From the NCBI GenBank assembly GCA_036555325.1, contig DATBLQ010000038.1, positions 38,623-102,622 of the forward strand: a stretch of 64,000 nt of DNA. Reading direction: 5' to 3'. This DNA comes from Aestuariivirgaceae bacterium (lineage in GTDB: Bacteria > Pseudomonadota > Alphaproteobacteria > Rhizobiales > Aestuariivirgaceae). The notes beneath the pieces are model-generated. The model made no database searches and was not told the DNA's origin. It saw nothing but the letters and a program-made list of their open reading frames with translations. Below, one piece after another: positions 9,056 to 24,782 of the stretch; positions within the stretch are counted from its first letter, which is position 1; each line of letters starts with the position of its first letter. The translations under genes and the position numbers were made by a program.

Positions 9056-10240
9056 ATGATAATGAGTAGAAGTAAAGCTTCGGCCCGCTCAAGCTTTGAA
9101 ACGATGCTGGCGGCGAGGCGCTTTAGCCGCCGAACCGTACTCAAGGCTGGCGCTGCTGCCGGTGCCATCACGATTGCTGGTCCGGCTTTTGTCAAGAACG
9201 CCCTTTCGGCTTCGGGACAGCTTAACCTTCTGATGTGGTCGGACGAATTTCCCGACCCAGTTGTTCCGAACTTCGAAAAAGCGACGGGCATCAAAGTCAA
9301 CATGACGCCGTTCTCGCAGAACGAAGAGCAGATCAACAAGCTGCAAGCCACAGGGGGCGAAGGGTTCGATCTTTGCCAACCCACGCGCGACCGCGCTCCT
9401 CAGTTCAAGGACCTGGGCGTTCTTGCGCCGTTCGACATGAACAAGGTGAAGAACACCGGAAACCTCATACCGGCAATGCTCGAAGGTTCCACCAGCCTGT
9501 GGACCTGGGAAGACGGGCTCTATCACTTGCCGCATTGCTGGGGGAGTGAGGCAATCTCTTGGCGCACCGACAAATGGCAACCCAAGGATGCCTCGCAGCT
9601 CAGCTACGGAGATTTGTGGAACGAAGAAGTGAAAGGACATGTCCAAGGGCGGCCACACTCGATGCTGCTCGGTATCGGCCTGTTTTGGGACGGGTCGGGC
9701 AAGCTGCCGTCGAACCGTATGCTCGATGCATTCAAGGATCCCGAGACCTTCAAGAAGATCTACGATCAGATTCTGCCGTTTGCCATCGAGCACAAGGCCT
9801 GGATCAAGCAATTCTGGGACTCGGCCGATAACACCAAGTCGGGACTCCTGGAGAATGACGTGTGGATTGGTCAGACTTGGGACGGCCCGGCGCTGTCGTT
9901 GAAGAAGGACGGCAAACCGGTCAACTACCAGGCTCCCAAGGAGGGTGCGATCACATGGCTCGATGGTCTTTCGATGCCGAAGGCTGCCAAGAACGTCGAC
10001 CAGATCTATGAGTTCATCAACTACCTGCACACACCGGAAGCGTCCGCAGCCGTGGCTGAGGGCTCAGGATACAATCCGGTCGTTACGGGTGCTGATGCCC
10101 TTCTGTCAGATGTGGCCAAGAAGAACTTCGCTGAAGCCTATCCTGGCGATTCGTTGAAGAACCTCTGGCATCGTCCGCCTGAGTCTTCCTGGCTTGGCGA
10201 TCTGAAGCTTGAATACGCCGATAAATTCAAGTCGGCATAA
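9056..10240 (+). CDS. ABC transporter periplasmic substrate-binding protein, PotD/PotF family, Tat signal. Putative 2-aminoethylphosphonate binding protein by context.
   Basis: GGAGGA precedes ATG 9056. Twin-arginine leader ARRFSRRTVLKAGAAAGAITIAGPAFV, then a PotD-like body. The upstream 115 codons of track ORF 8711.. cover the promoter and Pho boxes and are rejected. Confidence 0.85.
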   Translation: MIMSRSKASARSSFETMLAARRFSRRTVLKAGAAAGAITIAGPAFVKNALSASGQLNLLMWSDEFPDPVVPNFEKATGIKVNMTPFSQNEEQINKLQATGGEGFDLCQPTRDRAPQFKDLGVLAPFDMNKVKNTGNLIPAMLEGSTSLWTWEDGLYHLPHCWGSEAISWRTDKWQPKDASQLSYGDLWNEEVKGHVQGRPHSMLLGIGLFWDGSGKLPSNRMLDAFKDPETFKKIYDQILPFAIEHKAWIKQFWDSADNTKSGLLENDVWIGQTWDGPALSLKKDGKPVNYQAPKEGAITWLDGLSMPKAAKNVDQIYEFINYLHTPEASAAVAEGSGYNPVVTGADALLSDVAKKNFAEAYPGDSLKNLWHRPPESSWLGDLKLEYADKFKSA

Positions 10241-10260
10241 CCGGAAAGAAGTGAATGCCA

Positions 10261-10291
10261 GTCCGGCCCCGGCTTAGCTCCGGGGCCGGAC
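10261..10291 (+). terminator. Intercistronic perfect 12-bp GC stem-loop after the binding-protein gene (attenuator or mRNA stabiliser)
   Basis: GTCCGGCCCCGG-cttagct-CCGGGGCCGGAC, 21 nt after the stop codon. There is no T-tract, so it is probably partial termination or 3' protection rather than a full terminator. Confidence 0.5.
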
Positions 10292-10355
10292 AATTGCATT
10301 GGCGGCCGCAGGCGTATAGAAATTTCAAGTTGATCCGAGTGAGGTAGAATGGGGT

Positions 10356-11441
10356 ATGAGCGCAGACGTCGAACTTGATCACGTCACCATCAGGTTTGGC
10401 AATTTCACCGCGGTGAAGGGCGCCACGCTAAGAATCAACAACGGCGAGTTTTTCTCGTTTCTGGGACCGTCGGGCTGCGGCAAGACTACGATCCTGCGGA
10501 CCATCTCCGGGTTCCTGGAACCTTCACAAGGAACAGTCCGCATCGGCGGACAGAACATGGCCGGGATCGGCCCGAACAGGCGGCCAACGGCCCTGATTTT
10601 CCAAAATCTTGCACTGTTTCCGCTAATGAGTGTTGCGGAAAACATCACCTACGGGCTGCGCGTGCGCGGTGCGTCAAGAGAGGACCGTAAACGGCGCGGT
10701 GCCGAGTTGTTGAGCCTTATTGCTCTGCCGGATCAGGGCGACAAGCTTGTCAGCGAACTATCGGGCGGGCAGCGGCAGCGGGTTGCAATCGCCAGGGCTC
10801 TGTGCGTCGAACCCAAGGTTCTGCTGCTCGACGAGCCCCTGTCGGCGCTCGACTTGAAGCTTCGCCAGCACATGCGCAACGAGTTGCGCAACATTCAGAA
10901 ACGAGTAGGCATCACCTTCATCTACATCACGCACGATCAGGGTGAAGCGCTTACGATGTCGGACCGTATTGCGGTGATGAATGAGGGCATCATCGAGCAA
11001 ATTGGCGATGGGAAGACGATCTATGACCATCCGGAAACGGCTTTCGTCGCCAGCTTTGTTGGCGAGAACAATCCGTTCCTGGGCAAGGTCGCGCGAGCCA
11101 CTCAAAGCGAGGTTGTCATCGAGACCAAATTCGGACCGTTGCGAGGTCGAAATCCGAAGAATCTGTCGAAGGGTGACCGAGGGATACTGTTCATAAGGCC
11201 CGAGCTGTTGAGACTTGGGAACGGCACCGCCGATTCCACCCTGGAATCAACGGTTCTGAACATAGCGTTCGAAGGAAACGCCAGCCACATATTCCTCAAG
11301 GGGGCGGGCAGCAAGGAGATTACGCTGACGGTCGGCAGGCACGAGGGCGGTGCAATGCCGGAGCAGGGTGGCACTGCCAAAATTTCCTTCGACCCCTCCA
11401 TGGCCCTGGTGCTGCCGGAAGGGAAGATGGCTCGTGAATAA
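10356..11441 (+). CDS. ABC transporter ATP-binding protein (PotA-like, C-terminal TOBE-type domain)
   Basis: Walker A GPSGCGKTT, signature [15 protein letters not shown], Walker B LLLDEPLSALD, H-loop YITHDQ. Confidence 0.9.
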   Translation: MSADVELDHVTIRFGNFTAVKGATLRINNGEFFSFLGPSGCGKTTILRTISGFLEPSQGTVRIGGQNMAGIGPNRRPTALIFQNLALFPLMSVAENITYGLRVRGASREDRKRRGAELLSLIALPDQGDKLVSELSGGQRQRVAIARALCVEPKVLLLDEPLSALDLKLRQHMRNELRNIQKRVGITFIYITHDQGEALTMSDRIAVMNEGIIEQIGDGKTIYDHPETAFVASFVGENNPFLGKVARATQSEVVIETKFGPLRGRNPKNLSKGDRGILFIRPELLRLGNGTADSTLESTVLNIAFEGNASHIFLKGAGSKEITLTVGRHEGGAMPEQGGTAKISFDPSMALVLPEGKMARE

Positions 11442-12435
11442 TCGCCTGATCGTCTTCTTCATCCCGGCGGCGATTGTCATCGCTTACTTTCTGATGGCAA
11501 TGATCGAGCGGCGCGTCCTCGCGGACTCCCGCCCGACGGGGTTCGTTCAGCGCAATGGGGCGGCACTGTCACTGTTCTTTGTCGTTGCCGTTGGTTTCTG
11601 GACATTGTTCATGGTGACGCTGCCCTATCTCTACATGTTCCAGGAATCCTTCCATCCGACGCTGTGGCCGAAGGATCGCGGAGGGCCCAAAGATACGCTC
11701 ACGCTCGAGCATTACCGTTTCTTTCTGTATGGCAGTGATGGACTTGGCAACTTCACACACCTGCGGGCCTTCGTTCTAACCATCTTCATCAGCCTGTGTG
11801 TGACAATCGCCAATTTCATCCTGTGCTATCCGCTTGCCTATTACATGGCGCAATCGGCGACGACGCAAAAGGTGCGGGTTCTTCTACTGGCGCTGATAGT
11901 TCCCTATTGGGTCAACGAGATTCTACGTGCCTTCGCGTTGCGAGTCCTGCTTGCCAGCGGAGGCTTGATCAACACTGCGCTGCTGGGCATGGGCCTCATC
12001 AACGAACCCTTTGATTTTCTCGGCGCCAATATCGGCCTCTACGTGGGTCTTTCCTATGCCTATCTGCTGCTGATGGTGTTCCCTCTGTACAATGCTATCG
12101 AGAGTCTCGATCCCAATCAGATTGAAGCCGCCCGCGATCTAGGGGCCCCCTGGTGGCGCATACACAAGGACATCGTCATACCGCACGCAAAACCCGGCAT
12201 TGCATCGGGCTGTACGATGGTGTTCATGCTCTCGGCGGGCGCGCTCGCCGCGCCGCAATTCTTGGGCGGGCCGAAGACCCTGTGGTTCACTTCCATCGTT
12301 TATGATTTCTTCTTCCAGTCGTTCAATTGGGCGCGGGGATCGGCATATGCCCTGATTCTGCTGGCGGCGTGCATACTCTTCGTGATGCTGATGCTTCGCC
12401 TGTTCAAGGTGAGCCTAGGGGAAACAATCCGATGA
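11434..12435 (+). CDS. ABC transporter permease (PotB-like)
   Basis: Multi-TM protein with an EAA-type loop (IEAARDLGAPWWRIHKDIVIPHAKPG). A GTG at 11434 overlaps the ATPase stop. The track start at 11350 lies inside the ATPase gene. Confidence 0.85.
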   Translation: MNNRLIVFFIPAAIVIAYFLMAMIERRVLADSRPTGFVQRNGAALSLFFVVAVGFWTLFMVTLPYLYMFQESFHPTLWPKDRGGPKDTLTLEHYRFFLYGSDGLGNFTHLRAFVLTIFISLCVTIANFILCYPLAYYMAQSATTQKVRVLLLALIVPYWVNEILRAFALRVLLASGGLINTALLGMGLINEPFDFLGANIGLYVGLSYAYLLLMVFPLYNAIESLDPNQIEAARDLGAPWWRIHKDIVIPHAKPGIASGCTMVFMLSAGALAAPQFLGGPKTLWFTSIVYDFFFQSFNWARGSAYALILLAACILFVMLMLRLFKVSLGETIR

Positions 12436-13325
12436 GCTCGAAGTTCGTGATGCGGGCAATGATCGGATTTTATCTTGTGATCTTCTTCGCCTACCTGTTC
12501 GGCCCACTGTTTTTCATGAGCGTCACCGCATTCAACACGCCGAACTATCCGACCGCCTATCCTTTCGAACAGTTCACCTGGAAGTGGTTCGACGCCCTGT
12601 TCAAGGACCGGGACATGATGGACGGTCTACTCAATTCGGTCATCATCGGATTGGGAGTGGTTGCGCTTTCGGTGCCGATCGGCCTGGCGGCCTCGATTGT
12701 CATGCAACAGATTTATTGGCGCGCACGCGCCCTGTACTACCTCGTCACCGTATCACCGGTGTTGACGCCCGGCGTCATCATTGGCATCTCGACGGTCATC
12801 TTCTGGAAGGATTTCAGTGAGGCGATAGGACTCAAACCCTACCTGTACAAGGGGATCATTCTGGCCATCATCGGTCAATCAAGTTTTATCTGCGCTTATT
12901 GCATGCTGATCATCATGGCGAGACTTCAAAGATTCGACCGTTCACAGGAGGAAGCAGCGCTCGATCTTGGCGCCAGCTATCCGCAGGTATTCTGGCATAT
13001 TCTGGTTCCGTTCCTGAAACCGGCACTTCTTTCGGCGGCAGTCATTGCATTCCTGTCGTCGTTCGAGAACTACAACACCACGACGTTCGCAATACTGGCG
13101 GATAAAACTCTGGTGACTGTGCTGGCGGGGCGCGTTCGGCAGGGCACCACACCGGCGCTGTCGGCTTTGGCGGTCATCATTATTGCCATCTCGCTGGCAG
13201 GGGCGATTGTCTATGAACTCTTGAAACGGCGCGAAGAGCAACGGGCAGCGCGCGCCAAGGAGCAGGCGCGTCTGGCGGAACGCAGTGGAGTAGCCGCGGT
13301 GCCGGCGCTCGCGCCGGCGCGCTGA
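12432..13325 (+). CDS. ABC transporter permease (PotC-like)
   Basis: ATG 12432 overlaps the preceding TGA (ATGA). EAA loop EEAALDLGASYPQVFWHILVPFLKPA and six predicted TM helices. Confidence 0.85.
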   Translation: MSSKFVMRAMIGFYLVIFFAYLFGPLFFMSVTAFNTPNYPTAYPFEQFTWKWFDALFKDRDMMDGLLNSVIIGLGVVALSVPIGLAASIVMQQIYWRARALYYLVTVSPVLTPGVIIGISTVIFWKDFSEAIGLKPYLYKGIILAIIGQSSFICAYCMLIIMARLQRFDRSQEEAALDLGASYPQVFWHILVPFLKPALLSAAVIAFLSSFENYNTTTFAILADKTLVTVLAGRVRQGTTPALSALAVIIIAISLAGAIVYELLKRREEQRAARAKEQARLAERSGVAAVPALAPAR

Positions 13326-13363: not shown

Positions 13364-14170
13364 TCAATACCAATTGCCACGTTCGTCCTGAATTGACATT
13401 GCCGCAGGTTTGCGATCGAGGAATGCATCCAGATGCACGATGGTCCGATCGCCTGCCGCAACGACGACCGCATACATGGCCGGTTCGATGCTATAAACGG
13501 TCGGCACCGACCCACCGACCAGCGGCACCTGATGGTTGAGCGATGGCGGAGCAGCAAAAGGGATGCCGCGCCACATTCCGCTGAGCGGCCGATGCGCATG
13601 TCCAAAAAACAAATGCCGGATATTGTGATCCCTTATCGTCTGATGAAACGATTCGGGATCCTCGAGCTTGATCAAGTCCATGAGGCTGTGGCCGATGTCG
13701 AACGGCGGGTGGTGCATGAACAAATAGATCTGTCCCGCGCGTGTAGTCTCAAGCTGGCGACTTAGCCATCTGCGGCGCTTTTCACAATAGATTCCCGCTG
13801 AAGTGTTGCCGCCCTTGAAGGTATCAAGAAAGATGCACTGAATGTCGTCCACTGTGTGGGACGACTGGATAAATCCGTTGTCGTCGCAATATGCTCTACC
13901 GAAACTGCTTCTGAACACCTCCCGATCGTCGTGGTTGCCGATCAGCAGGAATGTCTTGAGCGGAAAGCGAGCGAGCCTCGACTTCAGCCCCTGATAAGAC
14001 GCAGGCTCTGCAATATCCGACAAGTCGCCGGCAATAACGCAAAAGGAAGCGTCGGCGTGATGGCGCTCGATGTCGGCAAGACACTTGTCGAAGCGATCGA
14101 GGGGATCCAAACCCCAAACCGTCGCACCGGGGACTGTCAAGTGAAGGTCGGCAATCAGGATGAACTTCAT
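13364..14170 (-). CDS. Metallophosphoesterase (class III phosphodiesterase, CpdA/GpdQ-like)
   Basis: All calcineurin-like motifs are present: ADLHL (DxH), AGDLSD (GD), GNHDD (GNHD/E), MHHPP, GHAHR (GHxH). Its ATG overlaps the stop of the upstream transporter (ATGA). Confidence 0.85.
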   Translation of the reverse strand: MKFILIADLHLTVPGATVWGLDPLDRFDKCLADIERHHADASFCVIAGDLSDIAEPASYQGLKSRLARFPLKTFLLIGNHDDREVFRSSFGRAYCDDNGFIQSSHTVDDIQCIFLDTFKGGNTSAGIYCEKRRRWLSRQLETTRAGQIYLFMHHPPFDIGHSLMDLIKLEDPESFHQTIRDHNIRHLFFGHAHRPLSGMWRGIPFAAPPSLNHQVPLVGGSVPTVYSIEPAMYAVVVAAGDRTIVHLDAFLDRKPAAMSIQDERGNWY

Positions 14171-15855
14171 ATGGTTTTCCTGTTCGCCGCCTTAAGTCGC
14201 GACTTTCGCAAGAGGCCGGCCGCGTCGACGATCGGATATGCAGCGGAAACGACATGCGAGTTGATCGTATGGAAATCGCGGATCAAGTCGACAAACAGGG
14301 CGCCGCGCCTCAACGACCGTCCTTTCGGACCGGGGGCGCGGAATTGGTCGCGGATGATTTTGTTCTCGATTGTCCGAAACAATCCTTTCTGCTCGATCAA
14401 CCGCCTGGCGCCGGCAATGTCACCGGAACCAAACACCCCCGATGCGAGCTTGAGGCTTTCGCACACTAAGTCGGCGAGTTTGTCCAGAGCAGCGCTTTCG
14501 GCGGGCGAAAAGCTTATGTTCTCCTTGATCTTCGACTTCACTCGGTCGGCGAGGCTCAAATGGATGATGTCGCCGGCATGCTCCAGGTTGCTCACATAAA
14601 GCATTGTTTCGAGTGCCCGCTTGCTATCTTCCGCCGAGAGTTCATTTCGAGTCAGCTCCGCCACATAGGCCTGAATGTCGCTTTGATAGCCATTGAGCCG
14701 CTCGTCGAGCAGTCGAATGCTTTTGAGACCATCAACCTTGTTGGCCTTGAGTGCTTCTACCGCGGTGCGGAACATGCGATCGAGCAATTCGGCCATGCGA
14801 ACAGTCTCCAGGGAGGCGTTCGATAGCGCAACGCTTGGGGAGTCAAATGCGCCACGATCCAGATAGCGTGGCTTGATAAGCGGATCTTCGGCGGCCTTCT
14901 TGTCAGGCAAAAGCTTTTCTGTGGCTTTTACGATCAAGCCGAGAAATGGGAGGCAAGCGACCGCCAGGCAGATATTGAAGGCAAGATGGGCGACGAGAAC
15001 CCGATGCACCGGATCGCCGGACATCGTATCGATCGAGGCTGAGATTTGCGGCAGAAAGGGGAGCAGCACTCCGGCGCCAATGGCGCGGCAAATCAGATTT
15101 GCCAGCGGCATGCGTCGAGCCGCGGGCTCAAACTCCATGGTGGACATCATTGCGGGCAGTCCACCGCCAAAATTGACACCGAGCACGAACGCCATGGCAC
15201 CGGCAACCTCCAGACTGCCGTTGGCCACGAACGAGGCAATCAAGAGGATGATTGCGAGGCTGGAATAGCTGAGCCAGGTGACAAGTGCGCCGATCAGGAA
15301 GGCCAGCAAGTGCTCTGATCCAAGGGTGGATAATACATTGTGGAACAGAGTTGCCTCGCGCAGCGGCGAAGTGGCGGAGGTAACAAGCTTGAGGGCCAAC
15401 AACATGAGTCCGAGGCCCATGAGGATGCGGCCGATATTGCGGAGCTTGAAGTCGCTTGAAGCGCTGAACAGCACATAGCCGGCAAACAGCAGCAGGGGCG
15501 ATAGCCAAAGTGACAAGATGGCGCCACCGGTCGCGAAGGCAGCCGATACTATGGCCGAACCAACGTCGGAACCGAGCAGCACCGCCAGGCCCCGCGCCGC
15601 CTCCAGAGTGCCTGCGGCTGCGAGTCCGGTGATGATTAGCGCCGTCGCGGTGCCGCTTTGTAACAGAACCGTTGCACCAATACCTGCAAGGAGCGAGGTT
15701 AGCCGGTTGGTCAGGTGAGTCTCGATAAACCGCTTCAGACGTTCTCCCCACGCCCGCAAGATGCCGGTGCGCACCATGCGTACGCCCCACAAAAGCAGTG
15801 TTACGCTGCCTAGCAAATTAACGATGACAAGTGTGCCGGGGCTTAGGAGATCCAT
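14167..15855 (-). CDS. Na/Pi-cotransporter family protein with C-terminal PhoU-like repeats (YjbB/NptA type)
   Basis: The N-terminal half is polytopic (LLGSVTLLLWGVRMVRTGILRAWG...). The C-terminal half is soluble and helical with PhoU-like repeats (NLEHAGDIIH). AGGAAA lies 5 nt before ATG 15855. The track start at 15900 would overlap phnY. Confidence 0.85.
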   Translation of the reverse strand: MDLLSPGTLVIVNLLGSVTLLLWGVRMVRTGILRAWGERLKRFIETHLTNRLTSLLAGIGATVLLQSGTATALIITGLAAAGTLEAARGLAVLLGSDVGSAIVSAAFATGGAILSLWLSPLLLFAGYVLFSASSDFKLRNIGRILMGLGLMLLALKLVTSATSPLREATLFHNVLSTLGSEHLLAFLIGALVTWLSYSSLAIILLIASFVANGSLEVAGAMAFVLGVNFGGGLPAMMSTMEFEPAARRMPLANLICRAIGAGVLLPFLPQISASIDTMSGDPVHRVLVAHLAFNICLAVACLPFLGLIVKATEKLLPDKKAAEDPLIKPRYLDRGAFDSPSVALSNASLETVRMAELLDRMFRTAVEALKANKVDGLKSIRLLDERLNGYQSDIQAYVAELTRNELSAEDSKRALETMLYVSNLEHAGDIIHLSLADRVKSKIKENISFSPAESAALDKLADLVCESLKLASGVFGSGDIAGARRLIEQKGLFRTIENKIIRDQFRAPGPKGRSLRRGALFVDLIRDFHTINSHVVSAAYPIVDAAGLLRKSRLKAANRKTI

Positions 15856-15887
15856 CCGAGTTTCCTGGTCAGACCTGCTTAGATCAT

Positions 15888-17348
15888 CTAAGCCGGCCAT
15901 GGCAATGAATAGGTCTTCACGTTGGTGAAGAACTTCATCGCTTCCAGTACTCCTTCTTTTACACCATTGCCTGAATCCTTAATGCCGCCGAAGGGCGACA
16001 TCTCGGTGCGATACCCCGGCACTTCCCATATGTTGACGCTGCCCACGTTGAGGCAGTCGACATAGCGTGTAATTCGATCCAGGCGGTTGGTGCATACTCC
16101 CGATGAAAGTCCGAAAGAGGTCGAATTGGAGATTCTTATGACCTCGTCGTCGTCGCCCGCCACCCGTATCATCGGTATGACCGGACCAAAAGTCTCCTGA
16201 AGGACGAGTTCACAATCATAAGGTACGTGATCGAGGGTGATTGGGGGGAGAATCGCTCCCTTGCGTCCAGGATGGTAGAGGATTTTGGCGTCATGCCTGG
16301 CTGCATCCTCCACCCGCCGCTCGATGGCAATGGCCGCCTTTTCGTCCACGACGGTGCCGAGATCGGTGTGCGGATCCATTGGATCGCCGAATTTTATGTC
16401 CTTGGCTTTTTGCAGTACGTGGCGGGCGAACTGGTCGGCAACTTTCTGCATGACGAGGATGCGTTTCACCGCAGTGCAACGCTGTCCGGAATTCTTCGTT
16501 GCGCCTTTCACCGCAAGGTCGGCGGCCCTTTCCAAATCCTCCGGAGAAAGATCATCGCACACTATCAGCGGATCATTGCCGCCCAGCTCGAGAGCGGCCC
16601 GCTTATACCCTGCCTTGTTGGCGATGATTTTCCCAACGCTTACGCCACCTGTGAAGGTGATAACCTCGACATGGGGATTGGTGACCATCTCGTCGCCGAT
16701 GTCACTCGGCCAACCGGTGACCACCTGAAACATCTCAGGCGGCAGTCCCGCTTCGTAGAGGATATCGGCCAGCGCCAAGGCCGTGAGGGGAGTGGCTTCG
16801 GCGGGCTTGCATACCACGCAATTGTTGGTGGCGATGGCAGGAGCCACCTTGTGAGCCACCATGTTGAGCGGATGGTTAAAGGGTGTGATGGCTGAAATCG
16901 TCTGCACCGGATGGCGTTTTGTATAGATCTTCCGCGCCTTTCCGTGAGGCGTCACATCACAGGAAAAAATCTGACCATCGTCGAGGATTGCAAGTTGACC
17001 TGCAAGAGTGAACACGTCATGGGCGCGGCCGCACTCGTAGAGCGAGTCCTTTTTCGATATGCCAAGTTCAAGCGTGATGAGATCGGATAACGCCTCCTTG
17101 CGTTGTTCGATGAACTCAGCCGTCTTGAACAGGATGCGCTGGCGCTCGTAACGTGAAAGTTTCGATCTAAATCCGGCGGCGATGGCGAAGGCACTGCGCA
17201 CATGCTCCGGCCTCCCGGCGGGAACGGTGCCGACCATTTCATTGGTATATGGATAGAACACGGGAATGACTGCTTCGGCAGTTACCTTCTTGCCGCCAAC
17301 CCGCATGGATTCCGTAAGAACGGTGCGCTTAGGCTCGATCCGGCTCAT
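15888..17348 (-). CDS. phnY: Aldehyde dehydrogenase, probable phosphonoacetaldehyde dehydrogenase
   Basis: ALDH superfamily motifs (ELGGNDP, catalytic [17 protein letters not shown]-like QETFGPV). It lies 9 nt downstream of phnA in the phnW-phnA-phnY order. Confidence 0.8.
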
Positions 17349-17357
17349 GCGTCCTGC

Positions 17358-18626
17358 CTATTCCGCGGCTGCGGCGAATTCCGCAATGTGGTTGCAGCCA
17401 ATAGCAAATGCATCGAAATTGCGAAGATTTTTGTGCAAACCGACAGTCTTACGGTTGGTGATAATCGGAATTTCCTGTTCGCTCAGTCCGCCGTGCGATC
17501 GAAGCGGCTCTGTCAGAGCCGACAGATTGTGGTTGGTGCGCCGCGATCCAATAACCTTGGTTGCCGAGGCGCCACCAGATATTACGACAAGATCTCCGAT
17601 ACGATCTTCGGGCAAATCGAACCGCCGGCTGGCCGACTTGCGGTCCAGCACCACATCAATTCCTTGCATGTGCCTCACCGCTGCCGCCACTTCATCGAGC
17701 TGCACGCCCTTGAGATAAACGGTGGCAAACGACCCGAGTGCCCCGTGATGCAATACATAAGGATCGGTGATGGGTAAGATGACCTGGGTGGTGTCACTGC
17801 CGAACAGCTTGTCCAACTCGTCCTGCAGATAAAGGACATCCGGTTCCCCATTGGCAAGATGCTTGTCCTTCATGCCGTGATCGGCGGTGATGACGACTAC
17901 GGCGCCCGCCTCGTCGAGCTGGCATAGATAACGATCAAGCATCAGGTAGAATTCATTGGCGCCCGCAGAACCCGGCGGAAATTTGTGTTGAATGTAGTCC
18001 GTGGTGGAAAGATACATGAGATCGGGGCGCTTCAGCCTGAGCAATTTCACTCCGGCAGCGAGCACGAACTCGGAAAGCCCGGCGGAATAAACTTCCGGCA
18101 CCGGCATGCCGGCAAATTCGCACACATCGGCGATGCCGTTGGCGGTCATGGTTGCTTTGTTCGCCTGCTCGGAGGAAAAGCAAATGGCCGTCCCATCGAA
18201 CACAAGCCCTTTTCCAAGCAGCAGCCGCAATTTGTCTTTGGCGGTGATCACCGCCACCGTGGCGCCGGCTTGCTGAAATTCCGCAAATATCGTCGGCGCG
18301 CGCAGCCACTTCGGATCGTTCATCATGACTTCATGGCCGGTCTGCGGATCGATGAAATAGTTCCCGCAAATACCGTGCCATGATGGCGGCCGTCCGGTGA
18401 CGATCGACAGATTGTTGGGGTTGGTGAAACTCGGCATTGCTGACGTGCCGCGCAGATTTTCACCACTAGCGATGATATTCCGCAAATTGGGCATGAGCCC
18501 GGCGTCCATGGCCAATTCCATGTAAGCGGGCTCGCTGCCATCGCAGCACACAACGACAAGAGGCTGAGCGGGCCAGCGGTAATCACGGCCGTTCACGGTT
18601 ACGGTTCTTGGTTTCTGTCTGGCCAT
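17358..18626 (-). CDS. phnA: Phosphonoacetate hydrolase (alkaline-phosphatase superfamily)
   Basis: Motifs I recall from characterised PhnA enzymes: VVVCCDGSEPAY, PSFTNPNNLSIVTGRPPSWHGICGNYF, MYLSTTDYIQHK, ITADHGM, LPITDPYVLHHGALGSFATVYL, RFDLPEDRIGDLVV, PLRSHGGLSEQEIP. Confidence 0.9.
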   Translation of the reverse strand: MARQKPRTVTVNGRDYRWPAQPLVVVCCDGSEPAYMELAMDAGLMPNLRNIIASGENLRGTSAMPSFTNPNNLSIVTGRPPSWHGICGNYFIDPQTGHEVMMNDPKWLRAPTIFAEFQQAGATVAVITAKDKLRLLLGKGLVFDGTAICFSSEQANKATMTANGIADVCEFAGMPVPEVYSAGLSEFVLAAGVKLLRLKRPDLMYLSTTDYIQHKFPPGSAGANEFYLMLDRYLCQLDEAGAVVVITADHGMKDKHLANGEPDVLYLQDELDKLFGSDTTQVILPITDPYVLHHGALGSFATVYLKGVQLDEVAAAVRHMQGIDVVLDRKSASRRFDLPEDRIGDLVVISGGASATKVIGSRRTNHNLSALTEPLRSHGGLSEQEIPIITNRKTVGLHKNLRNFDAFAIGCNHIAEFAAAAE

Positions 18627-18629
18627 TCG

Positions 18630-19751
18630 CTATTCGTCAGAGACAGCCGGCGTCATGTCTCTAACGCCCATCTCACGCAAACAATCACGCACGGCATCGA
18701 CCAGCGCTTGCATGACTTTCGGATCAACCTGGCCGATATTGCCTATCCTGAAGCTCGGTCGCTGAGTGAGTTTTCCGGGATAAATTACGAAACCGCGCGA
18801 TTTCAGCCCATCGTAGAAGCGCTGAAAGTCGAACTTGCGATCGCGGGGGGTAAGGAACGTTTGGATGATCGGACCCGCATCTTCAGGCGCAAGAAGGGTA
18901 TGAAAGCCGAGACGCCGCATACCGGCAATGAGGGTGTCGCGATTTCTCACATAGCGGGCCAGGCGACCGGCAAGCCCGCCCTCCTTATCGTGCTCTTTCA
19001 GTGCTTGGTAAAAGGCAACCAAGGTATGGGTCGGCGGCGTGTAACGAAACTGGCCGGTCTTCTCCATATGTTGCCATTGATCGAACAGATCGAGAGACAA
19101 TGAATGGCATCGATCCTTCGATGCCTTCAGCAAGTCCCACCGGCTCAATACATAAGCGAAACCCGGCACACCCTCGAGACACTTATTGGCCGAGGAAACC
19201 ACCACGTCGATTCCAAGCGCGGCTGTTTCAATCGGTATGGCACCGAATGAGCTCATGGCATCGAGGATCAGAGTGCGGTCGTGTTTCTTGACAGCGGTAG
19301 CTATGTCCCGCATCGGATTGACCAGACCGGAGGTCGTTTCACAGTGAACAAGAAAAACCATCGATATGCCTGGATCATCCTCCAGCGCGTGTTCAATATC
19401 TGCTAGCTTTGGCCTTTCGTCGTCGGCATATCGCAGCACGACGTGCGGTCGGTTCAACCGCTCCATGATCTTGATGGCACGCTCTCCATAGGCGCCATTG
19501 CTGATCATCAGCAGCTTGCGTCTGCCGATCGGGGCAAAACCTCCCAGAGCTGCTTCAATTGCGAAGGTTCCGGAACCTTGCATGAGCACACAGGTGTAAT
19601 TCTCATCGCAACCAGCCAACTTCAAAAGGCGACGGCGGATATCGGATACGATAAATTTCAGTTCCTGGTCCCAGGAGCCCCAATCAGCCAACATGGCGAA
19701 CTTGACCCCGCGGGAGGTGGTGAGCGGCCCAGGAGTAAGAAGATAGGGCAT
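18630..19751 (-). CDS. phnW: 2-aminoethylphosphonate--pyruvate transaminase
   Basis: N-terminus MPYLLTPGPLTTSRGVKFAMLADWGSWD and a class-V aminotransferase body (SSANKCLEGVPG PLP-lysine region). An alternative upstream ATG at 19811 adds 20 aa that are probably not conserved. Confidence 0.9.
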   Translation of the reverse strand: MPYLLTPGPLTTSRGVKFAMLADWGSWDQELKFIVSDIRRRLLKLAGCDENYTCVLMQGSGTFAIEAALGGFAPIGRRKLLMISNGAYGERAIKIMERLNRPHVVLRYADDERPKLADIEHALEDDPGISMVFLVHCETTSGLVNPMRDIATAVKKHDRTLILDAMSSFGAIPIETAALGIDVVVSSANKCLEGVPGFAYVLSRWDLLKASKDRCHSLSLDLFDQWQHMEKTGQFRYTPPTHTLVAFYQALKEHDKEGGLAGRLARYVRNRDTLIAGMRRLGFHTLLAPEDAGPIIQTFLTPRDRKFDFQRFYDGLKSRGFVIYPGKLTQRPSFRIGNIGQVDPKVMQALVDAVRDCLREMGVRDMTPAVSDE

Positions 19752-19852
19752 ATCTTCCTGGCCTTCGGGGCCGGTAACTTTGCGCTTAGGTGGCCGAACG
19801 ACTACAACCATTGGTTTTTCCGATTCGAAACTCCATATGCGGTTTCCGGACT

Positions 19853-19890
19853 TTATAAGTCAAATCGGTTCTGATTATGTATTATATAAG
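19853..19890. promoter_or_regulatory. AT-rich candidate LysR-binding region between phnW and the LysR gene
   Basis: TTATAAGTCAAATCGGTTCTGATTATGTATTATATAAG contains an imperfect dyad (ATAAGTCA...TGATTAT) and repeated TATAAG, in the only AT-rich stretch of the divergent spacer. Confidence 0.3.
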
Positions 19891-19904
19891 CTAGGCAGAT
19901 ATAT

Positions 19905-20762
19905 ATGAGTTACGCACAGCTGAAAGCATTCCATGCCGTTGCCGCGAGCGGCGGATTTTCCAAAGCGGCCCACAAACTCAATGTGACTCAACCGGCTCTA
20001 TCCGACCATGTGCGCAAGCTGGAATCAGCCTATGGGGTGGAACTTTTCTCACGTACGAGGCGAAAGGTGGATCTTACCGATCTCGGTCGGCAGCTTTTTG
20101 CTCTCACGGAGCGCCAATTCGAGGCTGAGGCGCAGGCCATCGAACTCCTAAGTCGCGCGCAAGGTCTCAGGCAGGGGCTCATCTCGATTGGCGCGGATGC
20201 GGCTGTCCATGCCTTGCCGCTTATCAAGAGATTCAACGAGCGCTATCCGCGCGTCGAACTCAAGCTGATTACGGGCAATACGGTCCGCCTTATCAACCAG
20301 CTAGAGAAACTGGAGATCGATTTCGCCGTGGTGGCGGAGGTGCCATCTTCGGAGATCTTCTTTGCCTGCAAGGTCCGAGAAGACCCACTTGTGTGCATAC
20401 TGGCGCAAAATCACCCGCTGTCGCGAAGGAAAAAACTTCTGTTTGATGACCTGTTGCAAACCGCACTGGTCCTGCGCGAAAGAGGTTCGGTCACGCGCGC
20501 CCTTTTTGAAGGCGAGGCAAGCAGACGCGGAGCACGGCCCAGACAGGTAATTGAAATTGAGGGCAGGGAAGCCGCAAACGAGGCGGTAGCCCAAGGACTC
20601 GGCGCCGGCATCGTATCGCGCGGAGAGCTGCCGCATGACGAAAGACTGCGCGCAATCGCCGTGGCGGATTGGCGCGAAACAATGCAGGAATGGCTCGTAT
20701 GCCTTAAGGCGCGCGCCGATCTTCATATCATGCGTGCATTCTTGCAGTTGCTGGCATCTTGA
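19905..20762 (+). CDS. LysR-family transcriptional regulator, divergent from phnW (PhnR-like by position)
   Basis: wHTH MSYAQLKAFHAVAASGGFSKAAHKLNVTQPALSDHVRKLE plus a LysR effector domain. Confidence 0.9.
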   Translation: MSYAQLKAFHAVAASGGFSKAAHKLNVTQPALSDHVRKLESAYGVELFSRTRRKVDLTDLGRQLFALTERQFEAEAQAIELLSRAQGLRQGLISIGADAAVHALPLIKRFNERYPRVELKLITGNTVRLINQLEKLEIDFAVVAEVPSSEIFFACKVREDPLVCILAQNHPLSRRKKLLFDDLLQTALVLRERGSVTRALFEGEASRRGARPRQVIEIEGREAANEAVAQGLGAGIVSRGELPHDERLRAIAVADWRETMQEWLVCLKARADLHIMRAFLQLLAS

Positions 20763-20793: not shown

Positions 20794-21639
20794 ATGGCAA
20801 ATGCATTCATAGCTGCCTGTGTCCAGAACTCGGCGACCCCCGATATCCATAAGGATATTGCAACTTGTCTGCGGCTGATCGAGCGAGGAGCCGCGGCAGG
20901 AGCGAATTTCATCGCGCTTCCGGAATACTGTGTCGGCCTAAACACCAAGGATGGGCTTCTCTATCCGTTGGCGTTTGAAGAGCGAAAGCACCCCGCCATC
21001 CCCGCCTTTGCGGAAGCGGCCCGCAAATATGGATGCTGGCTGCTCATAGGGTCAATTGCGGTGAAGGCTTCTGACGGACGCATCTTGAACCGTGCGCTCA
21101 TGCTCGACAAAGAGGGCACAATCATCGCGCGCTACGACAAGCTGCACCTGTTCGATGTCAACTTGGGAGAAGGCCAAGTCTACCGCGAGAGCGCCACCAT
21201 CGCTCCCGGCAGCCAAGCCGTGCTGTCGCCTTGCATGGGAAGCGTTATCGGCCTGTCAATTTGCTACGACTTGCGGTTCGCAGCACTTTACCGCGCCTAT
21301 GCGCAGGCCGGGGCGGAGCTGCTGGCGATACCGGCAGCCTTCACGAAGACGACGGGAGAAGCCCACTGGCATGTGCTGAATCGCGCGCGTGCCATCGAAA
21401 CCGGCAGCTTTGTGATCTCTCCATGCCAGTATGGAACGTTGGCGGGGGGCTCCCAGTGCTACGGGCATTCGCTGATCGTCAATCCCTGGGGGCGAATTCT
21501 TGCCGACGGCGGAGACGGCGAGGGTGTGATCACGGCCGACATCGATCTTCGCATGGTGGTTGAAACGCGAAAGCGCATTCCTTCGCTCCTGCATGACCGC
21601 CCGTTCACCCTTGCATCGTTACAGCAAGCGGCGGAGTGA
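20794..21639 (+). CDS. Carbon-nitrogen hydrolase (nitrilase superfamily)
   Basis: Glu-Lys-Cys triad contexts ALPEY, YDKLHLFD and LSICYDLRF. ATG 20794 gives MANAFIAACVQN. The track start at 20635 overlaps the LysR gene. Confidence 0.85.
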   Translation: MANAFIAACVQNSATPDIHKDIATCLRLIERGAAAGANFIALPEYCVGLNTKDGLLYPLAFEERKHPAIPAFAEAARKYGCWLLIGSIAVKASDGRILNRALMLDKEGTIIARYDKLHLFDVNLGEGQVYRESATIAPGSQAVLSPCMGSVIGLSICYDLRFAALYRAYAQAGAELLAIPAAFTKTTGEAHWHVLNRARAIETGSFVISPCQYGTLAGGSQCYGHSLIVNPWGRILADGGDGEGVITADIDLRMVVETRKRIPSLLHDRPFTLASLQQAAE

Positions 21640-23055: not shown

Positions 23056-23919
23056 CTAGCTTGTGGCCCTGCCGTTCCTGACATATCCATCGAGCCAGGG
23101 GGTGCGGTAGCCGTCGCTCCGCCAGAGCACGGGAAAATAGCTCTCCTCCATTTCGACAGACCCCATTTTCTTGTAGCGGCTGTAGATATAGCCGACATGA
23201 GTGGGATGGAACCGGGCGTCAGAAGAAATGCAATGCGCGATGACTGCACGGCGAGGCTTGTCGCCCCTGTTGTCACGTGATCCGTGCCATACCCGGCCGT
23301 GATGAAAAACCGCAGATCCGGCCTTTATCTGGATTGGCACGATCTCGTACTTCGTCGCGCTGGCAGCTTCTGCCGCGGGATAGAGGTCGCTCAAGGGATC
23401 GTCGGGTGCATGAAATTGCTTGATGGGCGGGGCGATCGGCCACAGGTGCGAGCCCTGCACATATTCAATGGTCCCCTGGTGGGCCTTGGTATCGTCGAGC
23501 GTGATCCAACAGGTGAGCATTTCCGGAGGTTCAAGCCATTTGTTGTAGCTGTCATCCTGATGAAAGCCCAAGGGCCGCGCACCTGGCGGCTTCCAGATGA
23601 TGTTGTCCTGACCGAGGCGAGCACCCGGCCAGCTGCGAAGTTTGGCCGCCGCTTCGCCAATGTCGGCGCGCAGGGCTATCGAAGCGATGGTGAGATCGGA
23701 CTTCCACGCGTTGCAGATCTGGCGAGTCAGATCCTCGCGGTCGCGGCCCATCCTCCAGTTCCACTCGTCGGGATAAAGGCCAGTCTCAAACTTGCCGGAA
23801 AACAGCGGCTCGAAGCAGTTGCGGGCAGCTTCGACCGTCGAGGCGTCGAGGACGTTGGCGACGGTAACAAATCCATTGCGCTGAAACTCGCCAATCTGGT
23901 CTTCCGTGAGGGAGATCAT
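23056..23919 (-). CDS. Fe(II)/2-oxoglutarate dioxygenase, phytanoyl-CoA dioxygenase (PhyH) family
   Basis: Facial-triad contexts LGFHQDDSY (HxD) and VFHHGRVWHGSRDN. ATG 23919 directly abuts the stop of the upstream EamA gene. Confidence 0.85.
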   Translation of the reverse strand: MISLTEDQIGEFQRNGFVTVANVLDASTVEAARNCFEPLFSGKFETGLYPDEWNWRMGRDREDLTRQICNAWKSDLTIASIALRADIGEAAAKLRSWPGARLGQDNIIWKPPGARPLGFHQDDSYNKWLEPPEMLTCWITLDDTKAHQGTIEYVQGSHLWPIAPPIKQFHAPDDPLSDLYPAAEAASATKYEIVPIQIKAGSAVFHHGRVWHGSRDNRGDKPRRAVIAHCISSDARFHPTHVGYIYSRYKKMGSVEMEESYFPVLWRSDGYRTPWLDGYVRNGRATS

Positions 23920-24782
23920 GCAGTTGCCTGTTCTAGCAGGGTTAGCGCTGCGACGCCGGCAAAAGTTAAAACTATGCCGACCCACCTCAGCGGCGCAACA
24001 CGCTCGCCAAGAAACAGCCAGGCGAGAAGTATTGCAATAACTCCGGCCGCCGATGCCGTGACGATCGCGAGCTCGGGCTGAGGGGTATGGCCGCCGAGAT
24101 TGAGCATTGAAAGGGCAAGCACGTCGAGCCCGCCCATCAGGAGTAGAAATGGCAGCCAGACTGATGGAAAGTGCAAGGGCCTCTCAGCCGCCAACAGAAC
24201 GAGCGCCACGATCGCTGCGCTGCCGCCAATGCGAGACAGCCAAGTTGCGGGAATAGCGCCGTAGATGGTGGCTGCATACTGGCCGATGAAGTTTCCTATG
24301 GCAAAGGCGAAATGCGACAACAGCGCGAAGCCAATGGCGCGAGTGGAGTTGTGAGACGCGAGCTTCTGCTCCTGACCGGTCTTCGCAACCACCACAACTC
24401 CCGCAATCACCAGTGCTGCGCAAAGGATTTGCCACACAGTCGGCGGTCGGCCTGCAAGTGCGCCAAAAATGAGGGACGTAGCGGGGTAAGACATGACGAT
24501 GGGAAGGGCAAGGGAGACAGAGCCGCTGGTCATGGCCGCAAACAACCAAATAGTGGCGACTGCCAACAGGACCCCCGATAAAAGCGGTAACCACATCTGA
24601 GCGGTGGATGCTGAAGGGAAAGTGCCGGCAATCGCGATCCACAGGCTGAGGAGAAACAGCCCAAAAACCGTAACCGCGGCGGCGGTCTTAAGCGCACCAA
24701 TGCGGGAACTCGCCTGCGCTCCGATGACATCATGAACCCCCCAGGCCATCGCGGCGATAAGTCCAAGCAAACCGGGGTTCAT
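23916..24782 (-). CDS. EamA/DMT-family transporter
   Basis: 288 aa, about 10 hydrophobic helices in two EamA-like halves. Confidence 0.85.
   Translation of the reverse strand: MNPGLLGLIAAMAWGVHDVIGAQASSRIGALKTAAAVTVFGLFLLSLWIAIAGTFPSASTAQMWLPLLSGVLLAVATIWLFAAMTSGSVSLALPIVMSYPATSLIFGALAGRPPTVWQILCAALVIAGVVVVAKTGQEQKLASHNSTRAIGFALLSHFAFAIGNFIGQYAATIYGAIPATWLSRIGGSAAIVALVLLAAERPLHFPSVWLPFLLLMGGLDVLALSMLNLGGHTPQPELAIVTASAAGVIAILLAWLFLGERVAPLRWVGIVLTFAGVAALTLLEQATA

Follow-up and report, generated by a model that had tools for sequence, protein, structure and literature searches.

A conserved 2-aminoethylphosphonate operon ending in a YjbB-type transporter gene and a putative phosphonate-ester hydrolase gene

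Introduction

Most natural 2-aminoethylphosphonate (AEP) is not free but esterified in phosphonolipids and glycans, and the hydrolytic routes known so far (PhnWX, PhnWAY and the Pbf feeders), to our knowledge, all start from free phosphonates. What could a transporter gene and a phosphoesterase gene do at the end of an operon for the AEP transaminase PhnW, the phosphonoacetate hydrolase PhnA and the phosphonoacetaldehyde dehydrogenase PhnY? The question is raised by a stretch of 64,000 nucleotides (contig DATBLQ010000038.1 of assembly GCA_036555325.1, positions 38,623 to 102,622; hereafter the window) from a soil or freshwater bacterium, an Aestuariivirgaceae-like alphaproteobacterium. Five genes form a tight array on its minus strand, in the order phnW, phnA, phnY, a sodium/phosphate (Na/Pi) cotransporter–PhoU fusion gene and a metallophosphoesterase gene, and a gene for a LysR-type regulator diverges from phnW. 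A sequence-only reading of the window had regarded both distal genes as additions to the described pathway.

We find that the phosphoesterase gene is the only true extra gene, and that with it the locus represents a newly recognised version, confined to one clade, of a known operon, with recurrent parallels elsewhere. The Na/Pi-PhoU gene is a known accessory of PhnA/PhnY clusters and not a new addition. On the function of the whole, we tentatively propose a LysR-controlled, substrate-inducible operon for AEP use in which the distal products would export phosphate and hydrolyse AEP esters, an interpretation that comes near to an even chance of being right but stays short of it.

Results

A tightly packed operon of known core enzymes

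All three core enzymes score above the curated NCBIfam equivalog thresholds for the identities first given to them. PhnW, encoded by the first operon gene (18630–19811, minus strand, like the four genes after it), is a class V aminotransferase by its Pfam Aminotran_5 domain and reaches 508 bits with NF010006 (cut-off 296) and 479 with TIGR02326 (cut-off 401). PhnA (17358–18626) reaches 513 bits with TIGR02335 (cut-off 408) over 405 of the 408 profile positions, carries the PF01663 Phosphodiest domain of the alkaline-phosphatase superfamily and shares 100% identity with a protein of an Aestuariivirgaceae metagenome-assembled genome that bears the name phosphonoacetate hydrolase. PhnY (15888–17348) matches TIGR03250 over its full length with 767 bits (cut-off 636). 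As members of these families, PhnW would transaminate AEP to phosphonoacetaldehyde, PhnY would oxidise the latter to phosphonoacetate, and PhnA would hydrolyse phosphonoacetate to acetate and phosphate.

The coordinates of the open reading frames (ORFs) and the junctions read from the sequence agree with the gaps and overlaps described earlier. Only 3 nt (TAG, cga, ATG) separate phnW from phnA, and 9 nt (TAG, gcaggacgc, ATG) separate phnA from phnY. The phnY stop codon occupies 15888–15890, and the two candidate starts of the transporter gene give a 13-nt overlap (ATG 15900) or a 32-nt gap (ATG 15855). The second is the better of the two, because an AGGAAA Shine–Dalgarno sequence lies 6 nt 5' of it and because gene callers picked the corresponding 562-aa product on identical metagenome contigs, which are present in several metagenomes. 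The transporter gene is therefore placed at 14167–15855, and its stop shares an ATGA at 14167–14170 with the start of the phosphoesterase gene (13364–14170), the last of the array. At the other end, PhnW has an N-terminal extension of about 20 residues, ending in a GP.GQED motif, that the NCBIfam PhnW profiles do not cover. A start at M21, where the profile match begins, was considered and dropped, as the extension is conserved across the clade and supports ATG 19811; with this long start, the phnW–lysR intergenic region measures only 93 nt.

The divergent gene (19905–20762, plus strand) encodes a protein with Pfam HTH_1 and LysR_substrate domains, in keeping with its earlier naming as a LysR regulator. 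Its best model is TIGR03339 (phn_lysR), at 311 bits, under the cut-off of 341, and the next model scores 163; the domains, the divergent orientation and a dyad of the T-N11-A type match the AEP-associated LysR subfamily, the score remaining below its cut-off. The dyad, CTTAT-N7-ATAA(G), emerged from an alignment of 12 intergenic regions of the clade and is followed by an invariant CGATTTGAC, which contains a TTGAC −35-like element pointing toward phnW. A related AACGATTTTACA block was found also in Rhizobiaceae and Rhodobacterales loci. The conserved block in the window (19854–19891) has the form of a LysR-type operator beside a −35-like element.

A scan of the unit for promoters returned 5 promoter-like sites against 3.7 expected, no clear excess over shuffled sequence, and a scan for terminators 16 terminator-like sites against 9.7 ± 3.8 expected, all of them within coding sequence. 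Given the tight junctions, the conserved gene order, the dyad and promoter-like block 5' of phnW and the lack of a clear excess of internal sites, the five genes are likely to lie on one transcript; the sequence-only reading had thought this very likely, and these features support it.

The last gene encodes a GpdQ-like phosphoesterase

The 268-aa product of the last gene belongs to Pfam PF00149 (Metallophos), and its best sequence match in the PDB is GpdQ (E = 9e-19), followed by Rv0805. An AlphaFold2 model (predicted local distance difference test score 85.7) gave the same ranking in Foldseek, with GpdQ (3d03) as the top match at template modelling scores of 0.84/0.82 over 265 columns, the cap included, and Rv0805 next. 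The metal-ligand motifs D8/H10, G48-D49, G78-N79-H80-D81, H153-H154 and GHAH190-193 are invariant in 34 homologues. The protein thus combines a GpdQ-like fold with cap with the class III phosphodiesterase motif, D-(X)n-GD-(X)n-GNH[E/D]-(X)n-H-(X)n-GHXH (PMC4222275). Its N-terminus opens directly with the metal-binding strand and has no signal peptide, which points to a cytoplasmic location. Taken together, sequence and model predict a cytoplasmic GpdQ-type binuclear metallophosphodiesterase.

GpdQ of Enterobacter aerogenes (PDB 2dxl, 2zo9 and 3d03) shares the fold, the ligands of the binuclear site and the cytoplasmic location, at only about 22% identity; the window gene follows a Na/Pi-PhoU gene in a phosphonate operon, and not in an ugp-type operon. 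Of the earlier label, CpdA/GpdQ-like, the GpdQ half agrees with the best match by sequence and by fold. The CpdA model gives 68 bits against a cut-off of 225. The SpdA model gives 231 against 400, so that neither equivalog threshold is reached. SpdA of Sinorhizobium meliloti shares the class III motif set and 39% identity with the protein (PMC4222275); unlike the window gene, which falls in a separate clade, it is encoded at the cyaD1/clr signalling locus. A small neighbour-joining tree groups the phosphoesterases linked to phn and Na/Pi-PhoU genes in one clade, with a Variovorax protein and the Ugp-linked Delftia and Agrobacterium pusense proteins as nearest relatives.

The arrangement is conserved in a clade

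The same gene order recurs in many Hyphomicrobiales genomes at 52–70% protein identity. The full five-gene order is kept in loci L007, L008, L016, L018, L022, L093, L094 and L104, and locus L103, which begins inside phnY, shows phnY, the transporter gene and the phosphoesterase gene. Phosphoesterase homologues at 54–60% identity on long contigs all occupy the same operon position (L007, L008 from an Aestuariivirga sp., L093 and L094), each with a 4-nt overlap between the transporter stop and the phosphoesterase start, and the outer flanks differ among these loci; L093 has no adjacent LysR gene. Megablast of the whole region against plasmids returned no close relative, only short phnA/phnY segments at 71–80% identity. 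The sequence-only reading had conceded that a linkage unique to this strain would be accidental. The neighbourhoods indicate otherwise: the five-gene arrangement is more than chance and is not strain-specific.

How far each gene is tied to phosphonate catabolism was gauged from 80 PhnA-seeded loci (one genome per species, up to 10 kb on each side). PhnY is encoded near phnA in 75 of them, PhnW in 61 and a divergent LysR regulator in 47; 32 have a Na/Pi-PhoU homologue no further than 10 kb from phnA, 6 have the nitrilase gene described below near phnA, and 4 have the phosphoesterase gene there. The phosphoesterase-bearing loci (L016, L018, L021 and L022) all belong to the closest clade, with PhnA at least 69% identical. 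The two distal genes, once counted alike as extensions of the pathway, therefore part company: the phosphoesterase gene keeps that status with its 4 loci, and the transporter gene, with its 32, a homologue in S. meliloti and a published account (below), loses it.

In one metagenomic locus, P0009 (JGI 3300056388, a 24-kb contig with a phosphoesterase 68% identical to ours), the nitrilase gene and phnW diverge, and phnW is succeeded by a 41-aa remnant and by both distal genes, Na/Pi-PhoU before phosphoesterase. The locus is missing phnA, phnY and the LysR gene and looks like a deletion variant that has retained the transaminase and the distal pair.

Relatives of the phosphoesterase follow transporter genes

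Gene contexts of further relatives were collected by tblastn against plasmids, from annotated regions and by a phosphoesterase-seeded metagenome scan (80 loci at 68–37% identity). Among relatives of at least 52% identity with upstream DNA, a Na/Pi-PhoU gene lies directly 5' in L103, L104, L106 and L109; the exceptions are L108 and, at 51%, L110, whose contexts are unrelated. In L109 the transporter–phosphoesterase pair is followed by unrelated (carB-like) genes, and the upstream side ends at the contig edge. About 20 metagenome loci at 38–47% identity have the phosphoesterase gene after a Ugp-like ATP-binding cassette (ABC) importer, sometimes with a HAD hydrolase gene, as do Tistrella, Delftia, A. 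pusense and Phaeobacter plasmids, an arrangement that by analogy is of the GpdQ type. Other homologues are convergent with a GDPD gene (L111 and L121) or lie about 2.5 kb 3' of a Na/Pi-PhoU gene, which itself comes after genes that, by N-terminal sequence only, are GlpD- and GlpK-like (L115).

The family also meets phosphonate genes outside the clade of the window. Variovorax paradoxus has, in order, phnA, a Fe-alcohol dehydrogenase gene, phnY, an SBP5-type ABC importer, a phosphoesterase gene (45% identical product) and genes for an NPP-like enzyme, a porin and PhoD. In strain VAI-C (L095; CP063167.1, 2429888–2456649) these belong to a large phosphorus-scavenging cluster that also holds genes for MgtC and acetyl-CoA synthetase, and the NPP-like enzyme is a Phosphodiest protein. 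The module of ABC importer, phosphoesterase and NPP-like enzyme reappears in L130, together with PhnA and PhnW, and in L132 and L138; L142 and L156 have the ABC importer and the phosphoesterase, and no NPP-like gene was detected in them. A third setting is found in low-GC marine loci: L151 encodes, in this order, PhnW (587 bits against 401), PhnA (477 against 408) and a PhnY-like protein (619 against 636), after which come the phosphoesterase gene and a partial EamA gene, and in L157 the phosphoesterase and EamA genes are convergent with genes for PhnY (783 against 636) and PhnA (515 against 408). Counting these contexts and that of the window, the layouts in which the family has entered PhnA/PhnY clusters number at least three, and its members would typically be cytoplasmic diesterases encoded after an importer.

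The succession of a GpdQ-like phosphoesterase gene and an EamA (DMT) gene was seen in five low-GC marine loci (L117, L118, L122, L151 and L157), two of which have phnWAY or phnAY beside it; Aminobacter sp. MSH1 (L010) has an EamA-type gene after phnY.

The transporter is a YjbB-type accessory of phosphonate clusters

Pfam finds two Na_Pi_cotrans stretches (PF02690) and a PhoU domain (PF01895) in the transporter, which also reaches 128 bits with NF037997 (cut-off 50) and, with TIGR00704, 197, below the cut-off of 210. BLASTP aligns it with Escherichia coli YjbB, named a putative inorganic phosphate export protein in RefSeq, over its full length, with 31% identity across 537 residues (E = 1e-80), so that both the architecture and the alignment are those of the YjbB type. 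The two proteins agree in length, in the two repeats followed by a C-terminal PhoU domain and in an identical second-repeat SYSSLA; they differ in that yjbB is a stand-alone gene whose product reads QSSNAT in the first repeat, whereas the window gene stands in a catabolic operon and its product reads QSGTAT. SLC34-type Na/Pi cotransporters carry a QSSS motif in both repeat units; by this motif the transporter does not fit the SLC34 importers, its repeats having QSGT and SYSS (QSSN and SYSS in YjbB). Such motifs do not separate phosphate from phosphonate as a substrate, the phn-linked proteins and YjbB alike having QSS[NT] and [YH]SS. A sister clade (L008, L016–L019 and L022) has GS[SG]TAM in place of QS[SG]TAT in the first repeat; Gly thus takes the place of a Gln that E. 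coli YjbB and every other phn-linked homologue have kept.

The nearest described counterpart of the operon lies on pSymB of S. meliloti 1021, at the locus from which the pathway was elucidated, where the order is LysR, Na/Pi-PhoU, phnW, phnA, phnY and then an ABC system. The divergent LysR gene, the order phnW-phnA-phnY (PhnA 62%, PhnY 69% and PhnW 53% identical), a YjbB-type Na/Pi-PhoU gene in the operon and an ABC importer nearby are common to both. Unlike in the window, where the transporter gene is fourth, its S. meliloti homologue (35% identical over the full length, E = 5e-90) comes first, directly 5' of phnW; the S. meliloti ABC system is of a different type and co-directional, and the locus has neither the phosphoesterase gene nor the nitrilase gene. 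Section 2.2 of a 2023 review (PMC10574752), citing Borisova et al. 2011, counts an ABC transporter and a putative symporter dependent on Na (WP_010975820) among the components of this operon, states that related species keep the co-occurrence and suggests a role in AEP uptake. It is on this homologue and this account that the transporter gene cannot be called a new extension.

The PhnA-seeded loci bear out the association. Where at least 8 kb was available on both sides, 27 of 55 loci have a Na/Pi-PhoU homologue; across the 32 loci with one, it stands directly after phnY in 10, directly before phnW in 5, further downstream on the same strand in 11 and elsewhere in 6. With a looser coverage threshold, homologues were found in 33 loci (1.43 Mb), compared with 1 in 535 kb of unrelated control loci (rough Poisson P ~1e-24).

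In L017, a clade member without the GpdQ-like gene, the Na/Pi-PhoU gene is followed by an MR_MLE enolase-superfamily gene and then, on the opposite strand, by a gene for a different Metallophos-family protein of 289 aa (14469–16486 of that locus). Judged by N-terminus and size, an MR_MLE-like gene comes next after Na/Pi-PhoU in L019 as well, and in L022 it comes after the phosphoesterase gene.

Neighbouring genes

Convergent with the operon, a PotABCD-like ABC importer is encoded on the plus strand at 9062–13325, with genes for a PotD-like binding protein (9062–10240), an ATPase (10356–11441) and two permeases (11434–12435 and 12432–13325). The ATPase is closest to PhnT2, a putative AEP ABC ATPase (344 bits, below the cut-off of 458). 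The system is syntenic in L007, L017–L019, L022, L092, L094 and L103, that is, often but not always beside the operon in the clade, and from profile matches and this partial synteny it is only a candidate importer for an AEP ester.

A Nit1/Nit2-type carbon–nitrogen hydrolase gene (20794–21639, plus strand) starts 31 nt after the LysR stop. Its product matches Pfam CN_hydrolase with 176 bits and, as best PDB match, the Nit2 omega-amidase 2w1v (E = 3e-44); the scores with NF043013 (177, cut-off 500) and NF033621 (139, cut-off 355) are below the Nit1/Nit2 equivalog thresholds. The gene adjoins the LysR gene in L001, L007, L014–L019 and L094 and is absent from L008, L020–L022 and L093. It had been suggested that it might belong to the unit. 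It is retained beside the LysR gene in only part of the closest clade, no functional link between the nitrilase and the AEP pathway was found, and its membership is uncertain. A role as pathway feeder was considered and set aside, the Nit2-like identity having given no identifiable role in phosphonate chemistry.

At 2.3 kb beyond the nitrilase gene, a PhyH-family Fe/2-oxoglutarate dioxygenase gene (23056–23985; 309 aa) overlaps an EamA transporter gene, the pair occupying 23056–24782 on the minus strand and being syntenic only in L001 and at P0009, both close relatives. Because PhyH is also the Pfam family of the AEP hydroxylase PhnY*, the dioxygenase was considered as a PhnY*-type enzyme; this was rejected, as PhnY* is not among its PDB sequence matches, the top one being SnoK, and conservation is confined to close relatives.

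In Aestuariivirga-like genomes (L008, L014, L016, L020, L021 and L093) the 3' side of the phn genes carries a conserved gene set, whose products are an aminotransferase of class III, a NAD-binding dehydrogenase and an acetyltransferase, joined in all of these loci but L093 by a histone-deacetylase-like amidohydrolase; the assignments were confirmed by Pfam in L008 and L093 only and go by ORF size and N-terminus in the other loci.

Discussion

Our best inference for the phosphoesterase is that it releases AEP from phosphonate esters. The enzyme would hydrolyse the single P–O ester bond of imported AEP esters, for example glycero-AEP, a phosphonate counterpart of glycerophosphoethanolamine that comes from phosphonolipids once they are deacylated, and the freed AEP would pass to PhnW, PhnY and PhnA. 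It would so feed the pathway from upstream, in the manner of the ancillary Pbf enzymes that AEP clusters encode: the PbfA lyase, the PbfB–D oxidoreductases, the PbfF racemase and the PbfG dehydrogenase (PMC8154272, PMC10590968, PMC12366243 and PMC13576164). As with these, a recurring extra gene of hydrolytic phosphonate clusters is proposed, by analogy, to turn a related natural compound into a pathway intermediate; unlike these, which act on the carbon skeleton, the phosphoesterase would act on an ester bond. The four papers mention no phosphoesterase or phosphodiesterase, and our search of the phosphonate-cluster literature found no mention of a phosphoesterase in such operons. The YjbB-type protein, to which the phosphoesterase would be translationally coupled, would export the stoichiometric excess of phosphate that arises when a phosphonate serves as carbon or nitrogen source, its fused PhoU domains sensing cytoplasmic phosphate. 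A bolder form of the proposal is possible, though we think it unlikely as a whole: a dedicated phosphonate-monoester hydrolase, recruited independently in at least three layouts, would gate esterified phosphonates (phosphonolipid head groups and phosphonoglycan esters) into hydrolytic carbon–phosphorus routes, and the YjbB-type protein would be the unassigned exporter of AEP-derived phosphate.

Several points weigh against the proposed roles. The best NCBIfam model of the phosphoesterase is that of SpdA, a 2',3'-cyclic nucleotide (2',3'-cNMP) phosphodiesterase, and at 39% SpdA is about as similar to it as the Ugp-linked relatives are (38–45%); the substrate specificity of class III phosphodiesterases is, moreover, not readable from sequence (PMC4222275). 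No importer specific for an AEP ester was identified. The gene is absent from 76 of the 80 phnWAY/phnA clusters, which makes it dispensable for AEP use as such, and the distal genes occur singly, the phosphoesterase gene in L021 and the transporter gene in L017, L019 and L024, and are thus not an obligate pair. The published proposal for the S. meliloti transporter, in the section of the review cited above (PMC10574752), is AEP uptake and not phosphate export, and the comparative evidence may leave room for general phosphonate import.

It is from this last point that the strongest rival grows. The Na/Pi-PhoU protein would import AEP, a related phosphonate or an ester, driven by Na+ or H+, and the phosphoesterase would hydrolyse the cargo, the two forming an uptake-plus-hydrolysis module like Ugp–GpdQ. 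Besides the co-occurrence on which the review draws, such a module would explain why relatives of the phosphoesterase are encoded almost always directly 3' of transporter genes, be these Ugp-like ABC, SBP5-type ABC or EamA, and why the two distal genes of the clade overlap or touch each other; the Gln-to-Gly change in the sister clade could mean an altered substrate. Yet the architecture and the repeat motifs are as in E. coli YjbB, regarded as a phosphate exporter, and the PhoU domains, which are phosphate-signalling modules, indicate phosphate sensing. Nor is the transporter a substitute for an ABC importer: an ABC ATPase gene, here read as pointing to such an importer, lies within 8 kb in 23 of the 27 transporter-bearing clusters and in 17 of the 28 others (Fisher P = 0.07). 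The transporter is found, too, in PhnW-less clusters that combine a Fe-alcohol dehydrogenase gene with phnA and phnY (L036, with a PhnD-type binding protein, and L058), a type described as hydroxyethylphosphonate clusters (PMC13576164); because these presumably start from hydroxyethylphosphonate, AEP-specific uptake is improbable, and the transporter would track the phosphate-releasing steps and not AEP. Phosphate export has been measured during phosphate-insensitive growth on AEP, no exporter being named (PMC8316502). In the supplementary proteomics data of Murphy et al. 2021, neither a Na/Pi nor a PhoU protein is mentioned. On the PhnW-less clusters, the lack of a trade-off with ABC importers, the PhoU domains and the measured export of AEP-derived phosphate, we favour phosphate efflux over phosphonate uptake as the probable role, and give the import module a minor, though real, share of the probability.

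Less likely still is that the phosphoesterase is a passenger, a phosphodiesterase for cyclic nucleotides (2',3'-cNMP or cyclic AMP) or for diesters in general whose gene settled behind the operon in a single lineage. Its best NCBIfam matches, the SpdA and CpdA models, the comparable closeness of Rv0805 and SpdA, its rarity near phnA and the unrelated contexts of the close relatives L108 and L110 (51–54% identity) would all fit. All the model scores, however, fall far under the curated cut-offs, and the linkage holds down to 52–60% protein identity while the flanks change; relatives also joined phnA/phnY clusters independently, in Variovorax and L130 and again in L151 and L157, and the ATGA overlap implies co-expression.

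Least probable is a phosphate-homeostasis module in which the target of the phosphoesterase would be a regulator or store that contains phosphate, cleaved for example at a pyrophosphate-type or nucleotide-anhydride bond such as that of cytidine monophosphate–AEP (CMP-AEP), and the transporter would handle phosphate flux: the translational coupling of the distal genes in the window and its closest relatives, the L109 pair with its unrelated (carB-like) followers and the presence among distant fold matches of LpxH, one of the metallophosphoesterases that cleave anhydride bonds, are compatible with it, but either distal gene can be present where the other is not, importers of glycerophosphodiester type accompany the diesterases that are the nearest relatives, and there is no known precedent.

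Were the phosphoesterase a passenger and the transporter an importer, the locus would simply be a lineage-specific version of a well-known operon. If, on the other hand, our preferred reading of AEP-ester hydrolysis and phosphate export is true, a cytoplasmic diesterase recurrent in these clusters supplies the missing de-esterification step, and the association of YjbB-type proteins with PhnA/PhnY clusters offers a candidate exporter for the phosphate released during AEP mineralisation, a release that matters for marine and soil phosphorus cycling.

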